Source of the DNA: Thermodesulfobacteriota bacterium
GTDB lineage: Bacteria > Desulfobacterota > Desulfobulbia > Desulfobulbales > SURF-16
NCBI GenBank assembly: GCA_039715015.1
Contig: JBDLIE010000021.1
Location: 1 to 41,572 of the forward strand
Reading direction: 5' to 3'
DNA length: 41,572 bases
Both the position numbers and the translations under genes were made by a program. This document shows, one piece after another, positions 5,928 through 25,774 of this stretch; position 1 is the first letter of the stretch; the number at the start of each line of letters is the position of its first letter. The notes under the pieces are model-generated. The model made no database searches and was not told where the DNA came from. It saw only the letters and a program-made list of their open reading frames with translations.

Positions 5928-7256
5928 TTAGTAGAGGTCGAGGTAGTTGTCGATCTCCCAGCAGGTAACGGCAGTGCGATAGCTGTCCCACTCCTTACGT
6001 TTGCCTTCAACGTATTTGCCTAAAATGTGGTCGCCCAGGGTTTCCTTGGCGATTGGGTTGGCCTCAAGGACGTCCAGGGCCTCTGCCAGGCTGGCCGGCA
6101 GGCTGGGGATGCCGGCGGCGTCCTTCTCCTCCTGGGTCATGGAGAAGATGTCAGCGTCAACGGAGCTTGGCGGAGTCAGGTCGTTCTTGATGCCGTCAAG
6201 GCCGGAGTTGAGCATCATGGCAATGGCCAGATAGGGGTTACAGGTTGGATCCGGGCAACGAACCTCAACACGGGTACCGAGACCGCGGGAAGCGGGGATA
6301 CGTACCAGGGCAGAGCGGTTAGATGCAGACCAGGCCACGTATACAGGGGCCTCATAGCCGGGAACAAGACGCTTGTAAGAGTTGACCAGAGGGTTGGTAA
6401 CAGCGGCAAAACCGCGGGCATTTTTGATAATACCGGCGATGTACTGGTAGGCTACCTTGCTCAGGCCCTGAGAGTCGCTGGTATCTTCAAAGGCGTTGGT
6501 GCCGTCGGAGTTAAACAGCGATTGGTTACAGTGCATACCAGAACCGTTGATGCCGAAGATGGGCTTGGGCATAAAGGTGGCGTGCAAGCCATACTTGTTA
6601 GCAACGGCCTTAACAACCCACTTGAAGGTCACGGTGTTGTCACAGGCGGTGAGAGCATCGGAGTACTTGAAGTTAACCTCGTGCTGACCCTCGGCAACCT
6701 CATGATGGGAGGCTTCGATCTCAAAACCCATGGCCTCCAGGGTCTCAATAATTTCACGACGGCAGTCGTTGCCAAGATCTTCAGGGTCCAGGGCGAAATA
6801 GCCAGCCACGTCGTTGGTAACGGTGGTGGAGTTGCCATCTTCGTCACGCTCAAAGAGGAAGAACTCAGCCTCGGTGCCGATATTCATGGTGTAGCCCATC
6901 TCTTTAGCGGTTGCCAGGCTCTTCTTCAAGGCGCAACGGGGGCAGCCGGTAAAGGGAGAACCGTCAGGCAGATGGACATCGCAGATCAGGCGGGCAGCAG
7001 CAATGCCGTCTTTATTACGCCAAGGCAGGACAACAAAGGTGTCAAAGTCTGGCTTGAGGAACATGTCGGACTCATCGATGCGGGCAAAGCCGTCAATGGA
7101 AGAGCCGTCAAACATGATGCCGCCGTCCAGGGCTTTCTCCAACTGGCTGCGGGGGATGGCAACGTTCTTCTGGAAACCGTTCACATCGATGAACTGCATG
7201 CGGAAGAAGTTGATTTTTTCTTTTTCGACAATTTTCAAGATGTCGTCTCTTGTCAT
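5928..7256 (-). CDS. glnA: Glutamine synthetase type I (GSI-alpha-like)
   Basis: FDGSSIDGF, HHEVAEGQHE, ATFMPKP, GSGMH, NSYKRLVPGYEAP and NRSALVRIP motifs; 442 aa; AGGAG SD. Confidence 0.97.
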   Translation of the reverse strand: MTRDDILKIVEKEKINFFRMQFIDVNGFQKNVAIPRSQLEKALDGGIMFDGSSIDGFARIDESDMFLKPDFDTFVVLPWRNKDGIAAARLICDVHLPDGSPFTGCPRCALKKSLATAKEMGYTMNIGTEAEFFLFERDEDGNSTTVTNDVAGYFALDPEDLGNDCRREIIETLEAMGFEIEASHHEVAEGQHEVNFKYSDALTACDNTVTFKWVVKAVANKYGLHATFMPKPIFGINGSGMHCNQSLFNSDGTNAFEDTSDSQGLSKVAYQYIAGIIKNARGFAAVTNPLVNSYKRLVPGYEAPVYVAWSASNRSALVRIPASRGLGTRVEVRCPDPTCNPYLAIAMMLNSGLDGIKNDLTPPSSVDADIFSMTQEEKDAAGIPSLPASLAEALDVLEANPIAKETLGDHILGKYVEGKRKEWDSYRTAVTCWEIDNYLDLY

Positions 7257-7429
7257 GACTTTTCTCCTAAAAAAGGGTTGAGGTGGCAGAAGAAGTTATA
7301 AAGACAGGTGCTGTTGTTTCAGCGTGCTGTTTGTCTAAAAAAATATAGGCTGGGTTATACACACTTTATGTGACCCGGACATATATTTTTTGTTGTTAAC
7401 TATCCTCTTAATAAAAACAAGTTGAAATT

Positions 7430-7447
7430 TATTACATTTTTGTACTG
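7430..7447. promoter_or_regulatory. Possible nitrogen-regulator site upstream of glnA
   Basis: TATTACATTTTTGTACTG shares the 12-nt core TTACATTTTTGT with the reverse complement of the amt-upstream palindrome at 11784-11801. Confidence 0.4.
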
Positions 7448-9979
7448 TCAGCTGGCGGCATGGGTCAGCCCCTGGCGAACCTCGCTGAGAAAATTTTTGT
7501 CCTGGATCTTCTTGCCTTCATGGTCCAGGACGTAAAAGACATCGACAACCTGGTCAGCTTGACTACCAATCTGGGCCCGATAGGTTGAGATTCCGAAATC
7601 TGCCAGGGTGCGGGTGATGTCGTAAAGCAGAGCCCTCTTATCCTCGGCGAAAACCTCGATGATGCTATATTTGTCTGAGCCATCCGGCTCAATGGTGACT
7701 CTGGTGTTGGTTCTTTTGTCTTTCTTAGGTTGAGCCTTTCGCCCTAAAGGAGCTAGTTTCTTGCTTAGACGGTGGGCAAGGCCAAGCCGGTAATCTATGG
7801 CCAACTCCAAATCCTTTTGAAAGGTCCGCCAGTCCTGATCGGCAAATTCATTATTCAGCGCCGAGGTAACCTGGAGAACATCCACAGCTGTGCCATCGCT
7901 CCAGGTGAAAATCTTAGCAGCCAGGACCTTGATATTGTGCAGGGCCAGAACGCCACAGAGACGATTGAGCAACCCTCGCCTATCTTTGGCCATGACCAGG
8001 ACATCCCAGTGATCCTCTTGGTCTGAGGCCTCCACCAAGGTGGGTTTGTTGTTTGCCATGCTGGTCGTATGATGTTTGATGTGAAGGGCCACCTCTTCTG
8101 TGGAGAAAGAGAGGAGGTAGTCATCCGGCAACATATCGAGGTCAAAATCTGGGGCGAGTTTCTGGGCAGCAGGCTCCAGTTTTTCCCTCATCCAGGCCAC
8201 GGCCTGTTTCCGGTCCGGGGCGACACGCTCATTGTGCTCCAGGGCGTGAGCAATCTTCAGGTAGAGCTCAAGGTAGAGGGTGGTTTTCCAATCGGTGAGC
8301 ACAGTGGGGCCGGTTGCCTTGGCGTCAGCGATGGTAAGCAGGTAGAGCATGGCCAGGCGGTCGGGGTCCTGGATATTCTCGGCGCATTTCAAGATGAGAT
8401 TCTCATCTTCAATGTCGCGGCGCAGGGCTATCTCCGAGAGGTAAAGATGGTTGCGCACCAGGAAGGAAAGGCAGTTGATCTCTTCCTCTTCCAGGTTGAG
8501 ACGCTTGCTGATGATCCTAACCAGGTCAGCGCCGTATTCAGAGTGGTCATTCTTGGTGCCCTTGCCGATATCATGGAGGAGGCCGGCTAAAAAGAGAATA
8601 TGGGGCGAGGCCAAGGTGATGAAGATGGAGGACGCTTCTTTCCGCAAAAGGCCTATTTCCTCAACGCATTGCAGGAGGTGGCGATCAACGGTGTAGACAT
8701 GGTAGACATCGTGTTGGGCCAGGGACTCCAGGTGCTCAAACTCGGGGATATAAGCTGAAAGCAATCCCGTCTCCAGCATGTCGGTGAGCACATTCAGGAC
8801 ATTGTTCCCCTGGAGGATTGACAGAAAGGCCTTGGACATCCGCTTGGAGCGGCAGACCTTGTCGTTGACCAGATGAAATTTTTGGCTGATAAGGGTTTTG
8901 GTGTTGTGGTGAATGGGCAGACCAGTGGCCCCAGATTGGGCAAAGACCCGCATAAACAGATGGGGGCGTTTGCTGACAAGGTCCGCCTCGCTAATCTGGA
9001 TGCGGCCCTGACGCACAGTAATTCCTGGTTCCAGGGTTCTATCTCCTGCAGCAGGAGGAGTTAGGCCAACCACATCCTGAACATGCTCGAAAAAGAGTTC
9101 GGTTACCACGGCAATGGACTGCAGATGGTTGTGGACCTCGCGCATGAAGAGCTCAACACCAAGCATGGCCTTGGTTGTCTTGTAACCAAAGGCCCCGGCC
9201 ATCTCTTCCTGGTGTTCGAAAAAGAGTTGGTCATTTTTGCGGCCACTGATGTAATGAAGGCGATTACGGATACGAATAAGGGCATTGATGGCCTCTTCGA
9301 ATCTTTTCCGGTCTTCGCTGGTGAGTAAGGCTGAGTTTTCCAGGTCGTCGAGGCTCTGAAGGCCAAAGACAACCTGGGAAGACCAGAGCATGGCCTGGAT
9401 ATCGCGAAATCCGCCCCGGCTCTCTTTGATGTGAGGCTCAAGCAGGTAGCCATGGTTGCCAAAACGTTCGTGGCGTAGCTGGCAATGGCTGAGCATGGAC
9501 TCAAAAAAACCTTTGCGATGGCCGGTCACGAAAAAACGGTTGAATTTTTCCATCAACTCGTCAAAAAGAACCTGGGAGCCGACAAGGAGGCGGGCATCAA
9601 GCAAGGAGACCTGAAAGAAAAAATCTTCCCTGGCGTCTTCAAGGCAAATCTCCACGGTGCGAACCCCGTGGCCAACCTCAAGACCAGCATCCCAGAGCGG
9701 GTAAAAAACGGCTTCAGCCACATCGTTTAAGCGATCTTTGGCCTCGGGCCTGTGGAGCAGCATTAGGTCAATGTCCGAAAAGGGAAAAAGCTCCTCACGG
9801 CCATAACCGCCCAGGGCAACGAGCGCCATATCGTCGGTGTCAACCCGGCATTCGCTAAACGAGTGGCTCAGGGACGAGTCAATGAGCTTGGTGTGTTCAG
9901 AAAGAAGGGCCTGGCCACTTAGTCCTTTCTGCCACAATGCCTCAAGGGCATCTCGTTTTGTGCGTAATTCCGAATTCAT
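7448..9979 (-). CDS. glnD: [Protein-PII] uridylyltransferase / uridylyl-removing enzyme
   Basis: ALGGYGREELFPFSDIDL nucleotidyltransferase motif, HVYTVDRH, LLHDIGKG HD domain, two C-terminal ACT domains (DVFYV). Confidence 0.96.
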   Translation of the reverse strand: MNSELRTKRDALEALWQKGLSGQALLSEHTKLIDSSLSHSFSECRVDTDDMALVALGGYGREELFPFSDIDLMLLHRPEAKDRLNDVAEAVFYPLWDAGLEVGHGVRTVEICLEDAREDFFFQVSLLDARLLVGSQVLFDELMEKFNRFFVTGHRKGFFESMLSHCQLRHERFGNHGYLLEPHIKESRGGFRDIQAMLWSSQVVFGLQSLDDLENSALLTSEDRKRFEEAINALIRIRNRLHYISGRKNDQLFFEHQEEMAGAFGYKTTKAMLGVELFMREVHNHLQSIAVVTELFFEHVQDVVGLTPPAAGDRTLEPGITVRQGRIQISEADLVSKRPHLFMRVFAQSGATGLPIHHNTKTLISQKFHLVNDKVCRSKRMSKAFLSILQGNNVLNVLTDMLETGLLSAYIPEFEHLESLAQHDVYHVYTVDRHLLQCVEEIGLLRKEASSIFITLASPHILFLAGLLHDIGKGTKNDHSEYGADLVRIISKRLNLEEEEINCLSFLVRNHLYLSEIALRRDIEDENLILKCAENIQDPDRLAMLYLLTIADAKATGPTVLTDWKTTLYLELYLKIAHALEHNERVAPDRKQAVAWMREKLEPAAQKLAPDFDLDMLPDDYLLSFSTEEVALHIKHHTTSMANNKPTLVEASDQEDHWDVLVMAKDRRGLLNRLCGVLALHNIKVLAAKIFTWSDGTAVDVLQVTSALNNEFADQDWRTFQKDLELAIDYRLGLAHRLSKKLAPLGRKAQPKKDKRTNTRVTIEPDGSDKYSIIEVFAEDKRALLYDITRTLADFGISTYRAQIGSQADQVVDVFYVLDHEGKKIQDKNFLSEVRQGLTHAAS

Positions 9980-10020
9980 TTCGTGCCAGGTTCTTTTTTG
10001 TCAGGGAGCAGTTAAAAATG

Positions 10021-11618
<1,598 letters not shown>

Positions 11619-11692
11619 CAAATTTCTCCGGTAATGAAAAGAGCCTAGGCTCTGAGTGGGTCGGCAAATGGTTAATGGTTTGCGATCTTTTT

Positions 11693-23480: not shown

Positions 23481-23960
23481 TTATTGGACGACAAAGTCGC
23501 TAAAATAAAGGTTTTTAATCCGATCAGGCCGGACTGCCTGGTTAAAGCGCTCAAGGAGTTCATCGCGGATGCGGATCTTGCCCTCCGGGGTCATGACCTC
23601 TTCAAAGGCCAGGCTGGTCAGCAGCATGATGACGATGTCGCGGAGCTTGGGTTCGATCTTCTGCACCCTTTCCACAGCCTCGGCGCCTTCCACCTCTACA
23701 CTGATTTTACATTTGAGATAGCGTTTGCCCTTGGGGTCGGAAAGGTTGACGACAAATTCGCCAAAGGTGACCATCTCCCCGACCATTTCCACTTCTTCTT
23801 TTGGTTTTTCTACATCTTTATCGCCTGCACTCATAAGGGTGGTGTAGACAAAAAAACCACCGCCGCCAGCCAGGAGTAAAAGTGCACCAAGGATGACAAG
23901 GAGCATTGTCTTGGATTTCTTTTTAGGCTCCTCGGGGGTTACGTTTTCTTCTTCTGCCAT
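23481..23960 (-). CDS. fliL: Flagellar basal-body protein FliL
   Basis: N-terminal TM, FVVNL, RYLK, LRD, LYFSDFVVQ terminus; AGGAG SD. Confidence 0.93.
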   Translation of the reverse strand: MAEEENVTPEEPKKKSKTMLLVILGALLLLAGGGGFFVYTTLMSAGDKDVEKPKEEVEMVGEMVTFGEFVVNLSDPKGKRYLKCKISVEVEGAEAVERVQKIEPKLRDIVIMLLTSLAFEEVMTPEGKIRIRDELLERFNQAVRPDRIKNLYFSDFVVQ

Positions 23961-24014: not shown

Positions 24015-24030
24015 AACAAATATTGTGCCA
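24015..24030 (-). promoter_or_regulatory. Sigma54 promoter of the fliL operon
   Basis: Minus strand TGGCAC-AATAT-TTGTT (perfect -24, -12 variant), about 55 nt upstream of fliL. Confidence 0.7.
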
Positions 24031-24547
24031 TGAATATTCGCGAGGGTTTTTTAGTATTGTAAGTTTCCTATTTTATAGAGATATTTTTATATTTCATTTG
24101 CGCGTATTGTTGATGTGGAAAGAGCTTGTCGAGTTTTGTGGTCATTTTATTGACCTTACTTTTTCACAAGGAGTCAAGAATCCGATACCTGTTCTCTATC
24201 AAAGAAACTTAGATGCTGGCGGTGGCTCGATCCAAAGGGAAAGATTCGCACTCTTGGTAAAGGTGGTAATAAAATTTGTACTTTTCGTTCATTTTTAACG
24301 ACAGGTATTTAAGAAAAAGCTGAATCTTTGCGTTGTCTGACAACGTCTCCGGGGGAGAGGTTTGCTGGTATAAAAAACTAAAAATGACATTAAGTAGCTG
24401 TTCTTTCGATGCAAATAAGATCTGTAGTTGCGGTATTCTGGGGAGAGTATAAAAAGTTGAATAGAACGAACAGGCGGGATTGTTGTCCTGCTTTTGAGAA
24501 ACCCACTGTTGGCGCTTTCTTAGCGGGGAGTCATTTTTTTCTCCGTG

Positions 24548-24563
24548 TGGCACGGTAATTGAA
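24548..24563 (+). promoter_or_regulatory. Sigma54 promoter driving a putative sRNA
   Basis: TGGCAC-GGTAA-TTGAA (perfect -24, -12 variant). Confidence 0.7.
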
Positions 24564-24573
24564 TTAAATAACT

Positions 24574-24646
24574 TTCGAGTAATAACTCATATCTCCTTTC
24601 TCCTGAAAAAGGCTACCTTGTCCCCCCAAGGTGGCCTTTTTCTTTT
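24574..24646 (+). ncRNA. Putative sigma54-dependent small RNA with an anti-SD seed
   Basis: Promoter, ~70 nt with no + strand ORF, CU-rich CAUAUCUCCUUUCUCCU segment, then an intrinsic terminator; 5' end inferred from promoter geometry. Confidence 0.6.
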
Positions 24647-24647
24647 T
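24606..24647 (+). terminator. Intrinsic terminator of the putative sRNA
   Basis: aaaaaggctaccttg-tccccc-caaggtggccttttt followed by cttttt; the stem has a U-G pair on + that is an A-C mismatch on -. Confidence 0.8.
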
Positions 24648-24802
24648 AATGGATACGCCTTGTTCGCTTTTCCTTGCTCCCCCTTGTTCAGGTTTTTCTA
24701 TACCTTAGAAATATGGTAGGTTCATTTCCCATGTCTTTCGCTTTTTGAGCTAACGGCTATGAGGTGAGCAACTCTTTTTGGAAGGTGTAAACAAGGCCTA
24801 GC

Positions 24803-25774
24803 ATGCAGAATAACCATACAAAAATTCCGGCAGCCATTTCTCGGTGTTCGTCCTATGAGCGTTCAGAGCTTATGGAAGGCGTTGAGCGGTTGATGACTTC
24901 CCTCTCTTTTAACCTGTCCAGGGGAAGCAAGGTCCTTTTGAAGCCAAACCTCGTTGCTGCTGGTTACCCTGCTGATTTGGCCTGCACCCATCCTGAGTTG
25001 GTCGCCGCGGTTGCCCAATGGTTTGTTGACAAGGGAGTCCATGTTGCCGTTGGGGATTCTCCGGCCACCGGTTCTGGAATGCGTGCCATGCGGATATCGA
25101 AAATGACAGGGGCCCTCAAGAATCTACCTGTTACCTTTGCTCCCTTTCGGGAAGTGAAAAAGCTTACAACAAGGGGCGGTGTTGAGGTTGCCGTGGCGGT
25201 TGATGCCCTGGAATGTGATTATTTCATAAACCTCCCCAAGCTTAAGAGCCACAGCCAGGCCCGGCTTACCCTGGCTGTGAAAAATCATTACGGTATTGTG
25301 AAAGGATGGCGCAAGGCCTGGGGCCATCAGGTGCATGGCAAGGGTAATGCCCGGCCTTTCTTCGACCTTCTTGCCGATCTGCCTTCACTGGTGCCGCAGG
25401 GTATTTCTCTCTGTGACGCAATAACCGCCATGCATGTCACCGGTCCCATCCATGGCGACCCATATAGCCTGGGGTTGATTGCCGCCAGCCCGTCAGCCCT
25501 GGCGCTGGATAGGGCCTTTCTGGAAGTTGTCAATCTTGATCCCGAGTTGTCGCCATTGTGGTGCGCCAGTCGTGACTATCAGGACCCGGGGTATGATTTG
25601 GACACTCTGCATTTTCCTCTGCTTTGTCCTGACCAGGTACAGGTAGATGATTTCAGGGTCCCGGATCACCTGAGCCCCGTGCATTTTGATGCCAGCCATG
25701 TTTTGGGCAGTCTGGCCGGGAGGTTCAAGGTTTGGCTGACTCGTAAAAGAGATAGGAAAAGAGACTGCTACTAA
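24803..25774 (+). CDS. DUF362 domain protein
   Basis: VLLKPNL, THPELV, VGDSP, INLPKLKSH and TLAVKN motifs. Confidence 0.88.
   Translation: MQNNHTKIPAAISRCSSYERSELMEGVERLMTSLSFNLSRGSKVLLKPNLVAAGYPADLACTHPELVAAVAQWFVDKGVHVAVGDSPATGSGMRAMRISKMTGALKNLPVTFAPFREVKKLTTRGGVEVAVAVDALECDYFINLPKLKSHSQARLTLAVKNHYGIVKGWRKAWGHQVHGKGNARPFFDLLADLPSLVPQGISLCDAITAMHVTGPIHGDPYSLGLIAASPSALALDRAFLEVVNLDPELSPLWCASRDYQDPGYDLDTLHFPLLCPDQVQVDDFRVPDHLSPVHFDASHVLGSLAGRFKVWLTRKRDRKRDCY

Follow-up and report, generated by a model that had tools for sequence, protein, structure and literature searches.

A conserved sigma54-type small RNA of Desulfobulbales predicted to pair with a porin translation start

A promoter, a seed and a terminator between fliL and a DUF362 gene

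What is transcribed from a sigma54-type promoter that points away from a flagellar operon and is closed off by a terminator before the next gene? The question is raised by the window analyzed here, the whole of contig C21 (41,572 nucleotides) of a 3.0-Mb, 99.99% complete genome (G000), where an 842-nt gap separates fliL (23481-23960, minus strand) from a DUF362 gene (24803-25774, plus strand). The initial annotation had placed in this gap a terminator-bounded anti-Shine-Dalgarno (anti-SD) RNA of sigma54 type and had assigned it to the flagellar hierarchy as a post-transcriptional layer. The RNA, about 74 nt long, proved to be conserved in relatives; its assignment to the flagellar hierarchy did not survive the comparison of genomes.

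The promoter lies at 24548-24563 on the plus strand, where it had been proposed, and differs from the consensus (TGGCAC-N5-TTGC) in its -12 element, which is TTGA rather than the usual TTGC. The motif by itself is weak evidence, because TGGCAC-N5-TTG occurs 46 times in the G000 genome; we accept the element as real because it is conserved in relatives. Judging from promoter spacing, the RNA would start at about 24574. The predicted small RNA (24574-24647, plus strand, about 74 nt) matches our covariance model at 86.5 bits, which is the only strong match in this genome (the R1 model also gives weaker ones). The -12 element has drifted throughout the genus, reading TTGA, TTGT or ATGT in all eight genus loci, and TTGT is also found at the fliL promoter of G000 (24016-24030) and at the promoter at C78:2064.

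Along the plus strand lie a small 5' hairpin (24577-24588), a CU-rich seed (24585-24604) predicted to pair with the SD and AUG of a porin mRNA, and an intrinsic terminator (24605-24647) consisting of a 16-bp stem (24605-24642), a UCCCCC loop (24621-24626) and a U run to 24647. The 74-nt plus-strand fold has an energy of -28.4 kcal/mol (z -7.7), which was equalled by none of 200 shuffles; it leaves the seed unpaired, as had been claimed, and the terminator forms in 82% of the predicted ensemble, without a rival structure. The strand preference of the terminator was likewise borne out (-25.3 on the plus strand versus -22.8 on the minus strand, with a G-U pair only on plus), and no plus-strand ORF of at least 20 aa was found across the seed; a 33-aa TTG frame begins within the terminator. 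The GAGU-AAUA-ACUC hairpin fared less well: it is present in the predicted fold, but only 39% of its cells are paired among 93 distinct homologues, no better than in shuffles, and as a conserved structure it was rejected in the single register tried, leaving a lineage-local feature. The C-rich terminator loop (24621-24626) is 73-84% conserved and is lost in family f17; it may be a second seed.

Read on the minus strand, the seed is an SD followed by ATG, that is, the plus-strand seed is the reverse complement of an SD plus start codon. This raises the question of whether the minus strand is the working one, either through a tiny ORF behind the SD or through its three GGA motifs, which could titrate CsrA, and csrA is present in G000. 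However, ATG follows the SD in only 15 of 98 homologues, and the promoter, the U tail and the upstream palindromes described below all indicate the plus strand, so there is hardly any chance that this reading is correct. The terminator folds better on the plus strand in 62 of the 98 homologues and on the minus strand in 34, and GGA motifs, the mark of CsrB/RsmZ-type RNAs, are absent from the plus-strand RNA. Besides csrA, the genome contains rpoN and one flagellin gene, and hfq was not found in it. The csrA sequence lies at the ends of two contigs (C45:3-143 and C68:2-112) that overlap in sequence, and these pieces are probably one gene split by assembly.

Conservation and distribution of the RNA

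When positions 24400-24800 were compared with 40 relatives by BLAST, the match was essentially confined to 24533-24647 and reached E<=1e-4 in 20 of them. We built a covariance model from 21 RNAs (G000 and 20 relatives), leaving the promoter out; at E<=0.1 it matches 121 of the 150 Desulfobulbales genomes searched. A further 77 matches, down to 37 bits and picked from the top of the list or because the porin was known, were inspected, bringing the set to 98 loci from 97 Desulfobulbales genomes. The promoter, although absent from the RNA model, is found at the expected distance in all 98 loci (with the canonical TTGC in 73), always together with an unpaired CU-rich seed and a covarying terminator. 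All 17 pairs of the model show two-sided changes, with 95% of cells paired versus 39-62% in slid controls, in an alignment that had been fitted to the model. The seed columns are 73-100% conserved, more than the stem.

A miss by the covariance model is not an absence, because family f16, which the model mostly misses, has the RNA by synteny: in all seven f16 genomes examined it was located upstream of DUF362 via synteny or the palindromes, with promoter, seed and terminator in place. The phylum was sampled with 150 genomes, of which 145 lie outside the order; among the latter, the model matches 21 at E<=0.01. Ten of these have the promoter and the enhancer, and some of the others look like plain terminators. 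A pattern scan of GTDB returned at least 120 matches, with the enhancer in at least 102 among the matches listed; 80 of the matches listed are mostly from Desulfobulbales or unassigned deltaproteobacteria, and the scattered unrelated taxa among the matches listed lack the enhancer. Cultured bacteria among the matches listed include Desulfopila sp. IMCC35008 and Hydrosulfovibrio ferrireducens CB1MN.

The RNA was described as unannotated, and Rfam agrees: no family reaches its gathering level in the window or in 10 homolog-bearing loci, and the best match in the window (ctRNA_p42d, 25 bits versus 50) covers the terminator only. In the full text of open PMC and bioRxiv papers, our searches found neither this RNA nor its enhancer described, nor any pairing of an sRNA with a porin reported for the group, nor any sRNA-target pair described for Desulfobulbales. 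Its own promoter and terminator enclose a short region without a conserved ORF, and its conserved unpaired seed has a conserved complementary site in a distant mRNA. The sRNA family is real and previously uncatalogued, and the gene, as far as sequence can tell, is almost certainly that of a conserved, transcribed sRNA.

Paralogs that share the design of promoter, enhancer and terminator and differ in the seed were also observed, both in family f15 (L214-L217, L084, L071, L091) and in other orders (L503, L507, L508). In two genomes (G167 and G208), a second copy of the RNA bears an extra 5' hairpin with a C-rich loop. A second R2 match in G000 (C14:65153) was rejected as a paralog; it is an ordinary terminator, because it has neither promoter nor palindrome and is positioned after a gene.

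The downstream neighborhood offers another reading. DUF362 is the next gene in 52 of 77 loci, often less than 100 nt away, and the commoner layout is aconitase, RNA, DUF362, fabL, maf; the element could therefore be a cis-acting leader or attenuator of DUF362-fabL-maf, or a mere insulating terminator. Yet many loci have a different or a convergent next gene, the part that is best conserved is the unpaired seed and not the stem, no fold competes with the terminator, and the DUF362 start pairs poorly with the seed (median -7.1). We give this reading a very small chance. Generously scored, five neighboring genes have seed-pairing medians of -7 to -13.

Enhancer palindromes upstream of the promoter

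A palindrome with the consensus GGTACAAAATTTTGTACC (hereafter UAS) precedes the RNA in 77 of 78 loci, usually as two or three copies, versus 1-4 of 78 in shuffled sequences. Its positions peak near -104, -190 and -285, and the bin from -110 to -101 alone holds 57 sites from the 78 loci. Palindromes spaced upstream in this way are typical of sigma54 promoters that an enhancer-binding protein activates. In the window, the distal UAS (24265-24282, no strand assigned, as for the others) scores 18.6 bits, the best site of the genome, and lies 283 nt upstream of the promoter, a position kept in homologs. The middle copy (24367-24384) is degenerate, falls below the 8-bit threshold in G000 and was read by eye; in homologs it is found at about -180 to -200. 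The proximal copy (24446-24463, 10.3 bits) is 102 nt upstream of the promoter.

Strict UAS patterns retrieved few sites, and genome-wide there are 11 UAS matches in G000. Three copies precede an operon with cytochrome c-like and DUF3373 genes (C16:57443-57650), one stands before the sigma54 promoter of a NifX-like gene (C78:2177), and one lies within the leader of a molybdopterin oxidoreductase operon (C39:10057). The DUF3373 gene or its operon is preceded by UAS both in G000 and in G133.

The RNA does not track flagella

On the one hand, there are reasons to suspect a flagellar role, in which the RNA would be made with the middle flagellar genes and would repress a flagellar mRNA. In G000 it is divergent from fliL, and the distal UAS is also 234 nt upstream of the fliL sigma54 promoter. 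The flagellin leader of G000 contains a purine-rich stretch that pairs with the seed at -21.3 kcal/mol (rank 26 of 2,649 long windows), and the starts of cheW-like, flgF-like and fliN genes rank 17, 75 and 87. On the other hand, only 11 of 77 loci have fliL as the immediate neighbor; in seven more it is about 2.7 kb away, mostly past an aconitase gene. The RNA also remains where flagellin does not. In our census by Pfam family, flagellin is found in 106 of 150 genomes (a 26-aa query, which found 34 of 150, was too insensitive). Genus g16 has no flagellin in any of 13 genomes and an RNA model match in 12, with the promoter intact in 10 of these 12 (those checked). One of them (G029) is 100% complete in 20 contigs. 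Similarly, g32 has flagellin in none of eight genomes and a match in seven, and its RNA, too, is intact.

Pairing gives the same answer. The 86 flagellar and chemotaxis start regions of G000, a set that includes some bystander genes, are not enriched (4 of 86 in the top 5%; median rank 1,536 of 2,653). Flagellin start regions pair with the seed at only -5 to -14 kcal/mol, and no conserved flagellar mRNA target was found when fliL and flagellin were compared across genomes. The flagellin leader was rejected as a target, its pairing varying from -9 to -25 across 30 leaders taken from genomes with and without known RNA. Furthermore, the other flagellar sigma54 promoters of G000, on C45 and C9, have no UAS. 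Altogether, a flagellar layer is highly improbable.

The second sigma54 site in the gap (24016-24030, minus strand) serves fliL, and about 110 nt upstream of it is a palindrome (24140-24155) that resembles the Pseudomonas FleQ box; the flagellar operon thus likely has an activator site of its own. Many flagellin leaders contain a strong SD-like GGAGGUG stretch some 95-125 nt before the start codon (L144, L104-L133), in G000 behind a sigma28-like promoter (C15:27900-27940, L144). The stretch is present irrespective of known RNA in the genome and is possibly a CsrA site or an mRNA stabilizer. Elsewhere in the window, amtB, glnB, glnD and glnA (5928-11621) come after the genes for flagellar export and chemotaxis and share their strand.

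The seed and the porin translation start

One of the UAS matches in G000 precedes a signal-peptide gene that starts at C51:149 (minus strand, start region AAGGAGAAAGAGAUAUG) and is truncated at the contig end. The remainder is very likely on C83, because a same-genus orthologue matches both parts, which do not overlap. The model of this orthologue is an 18-strand barrel (pLDDT 83) nearest to AlgE and Campylobacter MOMP, and the family has weak matches to DESULF_POR1 and porin models, below the cut-off. Its likeness to known porins suggests that the protein is the major porin.

We took start regions from our own simple gene caller (2,653 predicted starts in G000). The G000 seed pairs with the porin start through 17 bp and one bulge at -24.3 kcal/mol, rank 4 of 2,653, three other starts ranking higher; with target accessibility included, the porin is 14th of 150 rescored starts, at an opening cost of 8.9 kcal/mol. 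Across 50 genomes, cognate seed-porin pairs reach -15 kcal/mol or better in 46 (median -19.5) and are weak in G016, G053, G080 and G050. Ranked against 350 sampled G000 starts that contain an SD core, the porin falls within the top 10% with 45 of the 50 seeds, within the top 5% with 32 and within the top 1% with 18. Seven more genomes, in which porin-like genes were recognized by profile, gave pairing at -17.8 to -25.4. In f15, the paralog type of G084 and G096 pairs at -26 and -22, other types at -11 to -13, and other signal-peptide genes in those loci at -3 to -16.

Seed and porin start also change together. The common seed and the common start, AGGAGAUAAGAG-AUG, are perfectly complementary. 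Both are altered in f8 (seed CUCUUUUCUCCU, start AGGAGAAAAGA) and in f17 (AUCUCUUCUCUCC and GGAGAGAAGAGAU), and in G133 and G152 a shifted seed, UUCUUCAUCUCUUC, matches a correspondingly shifted porin start, GAAGAGAUGAAGAA, the match running into the coding sequence, with cognate pairing at -32 and -30 kcal/mol. A permutation at the level of 11 families, run after removal of row and column effects, gave p values of 7e-4 for energy and 2e-5 for the longest perfect run, which are too optimistic because the families are related; in terms of energy, cognate pairs have no edge in two of the families. Before ATG, a perfect 12-nt complement to the common seed turns up 26 times in 150 genomes, versus twice for the reversed control: 14 of these sites belong to this porin, two to TorF-like porins, one to the RNA itself and nine to unrelated genes.

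Could the RNA instead be a broad anti-SD repressor with many targets, the porin being one of them, or matching well only because strong purine-rich starts are a feature of abundant proteins? Strong matches in G000 do include Pal and the DUF3373 protein, as well as ATP synthase subunit a-like and CheW-like genes (named by eye), paralogs with other seeds exist, and the RNA persists where the porin target is not found. Yet the pairing extends across the normally free spacer and on into coding sequence, and it moves along with the seed from one family to another; no other gene appears more than twice among the exact-complement matches. We therefore consider the broad reading unlikely, while noting that it is partly compatible with the porin explanation. 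The complementarity points to the porin as, most probably, a main target in Desulfobulbales.

This statement is limited to Desulfobulbales because outside the order neither a porin target nor another target was found. Searches of 14 genomes from other orders with the porin profile found no porin, in 12 genomes from other orders the UAS sites lie at RNAs and unrelated genes but at no porin, and the seed-complement pattern has two matches in 13 f47 genomes, neither of them in the four with verified RNA. In five f16 genomes, the exact 14-mer complement matched no porin; its sites are inside hemA-like and TetR-like genes and a non-gene (named by eye). The porin profile found a porin in one of these five, with pairing at -19.8. 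In L451 (G097), the seed matches a hemA-like coding sequence at an internal AUG (20 bp, -32 kcal/mol).

A proposed circuit and its candidate activator

These computed features, namely the structure of the element and how well it is conserved, the complementarity, the concerted change of seed and porin start, and a palindrome shared with many porin promoters, are best explained by a sigma54 sRNA whose seed blocks porin translation independently of Hfq, a reading to which we assign a probability of about 0.75. From the sequence we infer that the RNA is made, that sigma54 and a regulator drive it and that its pairing represses. Specifically, sigma54 and an enhancer-binding response regulator would drive the RNA from about 24574, and the CU-rich seed would pair with the porin ribosome-binding site and start codon, blocking translation without Hfq. 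Across 150 Desulfobulbales genomes, no member of the Hfq family was found (control rings: 5 of 14).

A candidate activator is suggested by gene order. In G191, G260 and G294, genomes from three other families, the gene for an NtrC-type response regulator stops some 220 nt short of the RNA; in the two long contigs (G191 and G260), a membrane kinase gene stands before it. The best G000 match to the regulator is C35:9623-11017, near lpxC-, lpxK-, kdtA- and murJ-like genes, and that to the kinase is C22:10267-11727, after ftsQ-, ftsA- and ftsZ-like genes (neighbors named by eye). The recognition helix of the regulator is identical in G000, G011, G029, G054 and G086. Two facts sit less easily with it: G054 has the regulator, yet no RNA or UAS match, and Desulfovibrio vulgaris DVU3305 has nearly the same recognition helix and a different validated site, which counts against the candidate. 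On balance, we lean slightly toward the C35 regulator, one of 25 enhancer-binding proteins, with the C22 kinase, as activator of the RNA. The trigger may be an envelope-related signal, as the target and the neighbors of the regulator and kinase genes suggest.

The same palindrome occurs at many porin promoters. A UAS of at least 12 bits is found in 19 of 50 porin upstream regions versus 6 of 2,545 G000 genes. No sigma54 site follows it in any of the 19, and a TTGAC box lies within 60 nt downstream in 11; 28 of the 50 porin promoters lack a UAS of 8 bits or more. The regulator might thus also act on the sigma70 promoter of the porin itself, so that the porin would be shut off in a feed-forward manner; direct repression there is possible, if somewhat less probable than not. 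More doubtful is the idea that membrane kinase, sigma54 activator and CU-seed RNAs form an ancient Desulfobacterota module, an envelope-control circuit of its own standing in for sigmaE/MicA and OmpR/MicF without Hfq, in which the porin would be shut at promoter and ribosome, seed and target would have co-evolved by family, and duplicated RNAs would have gained new targets.

For an order involved in sulfur and iron cycling, the system supplies an sRNA with a specific predicted target, together with an enhancer motif and a two-component system as its candidate control. Porin abundance sets envelope permeability, so the RNA is a point of entry for studying how uptake and stress tolerance are adjusted in these anaerobes, and the family-by-family covariation of seed and porin is a natural series of compensatory mutations.

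Comparison with known regulatory RNAs

MicA and RybB are sigmaE-driven porin sRNAs. In the OmpR-MicF-ompF system of E. coli, the regulator induces an sRNA that blocks translation of the major porin and also represses the porin promoter (PMC2013925). The circuit proposed here is similar in that a regulator-induced sRNA would act against porin translation, its promoter arm being suggested by the shared sites, and like the RNAs of the MicF/MicA/RybB type it would target an outer membrane protein mRNA near its start, going by predicted pairing and barrel fold. Unlike those, it has a sigma54 promoter with enhancers, belongs to an order in which hfq was not found, is predicted to target an unrelated 18-strand barrel and has no Rfam match to them. 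It works like MicF by prediction and is not a member of the MicF family, given the sigma54 promoter with enhancers, the lack of Hfq and the lack of a sequence link. If the prediction is true, the MicF design would have been reached independently, by a porin repressor that is driven by sigma54 and does without Hfq. NcS25 of Burkholderia cenocepacia is likewise a conserved sRNA with conserved predicted pairing near a porin mRNA start; it differs in that no sigma54 motif was found upstream of it, it is expressed constitutively and it occurs alongside Hfq (PMC10117139).

Closer in promoter type are four sigma54 ncRNAs of D. vulgaris, namely Dv_sRNA2 (DVU0679) and those near DVU0653, DVU3282 and DVU2357 (PMC3333781, PMC4641369). 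They share the sigma54 promoter, the enhancer-binding activator and, sometimes, a position just downstream of the regulator gene. The candidate activator has a DNA-binding domain unlike those of DVU0653, DVU0679, DVU1419 and DVU2359, and the sites listed for DVU0653, DVU0679 and DVU2359 are not the UAS, which sets those RNAs apart by activator and site; the DVU3381 site resembles the UAS and is one base shorter (PMC3333781, PMC4641369). FlmE (CJnc230) and FlmR (CJnc170) of Campylobacter jejuni are also RpoN-linked and repress translation of target mRNAs, but they are tied to flagellar operons, with targets such as flgM (PMC11187230), whereas the present RNA is confined neither to flagellated genomes nor to flagellar operons. 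Finally, RsaE/RoxS (RF01820) is likewise short, with unpaired UCC-type stretches and a terminator; at 20 bits versus a gathering level of 79, the resemblance is one of design only.
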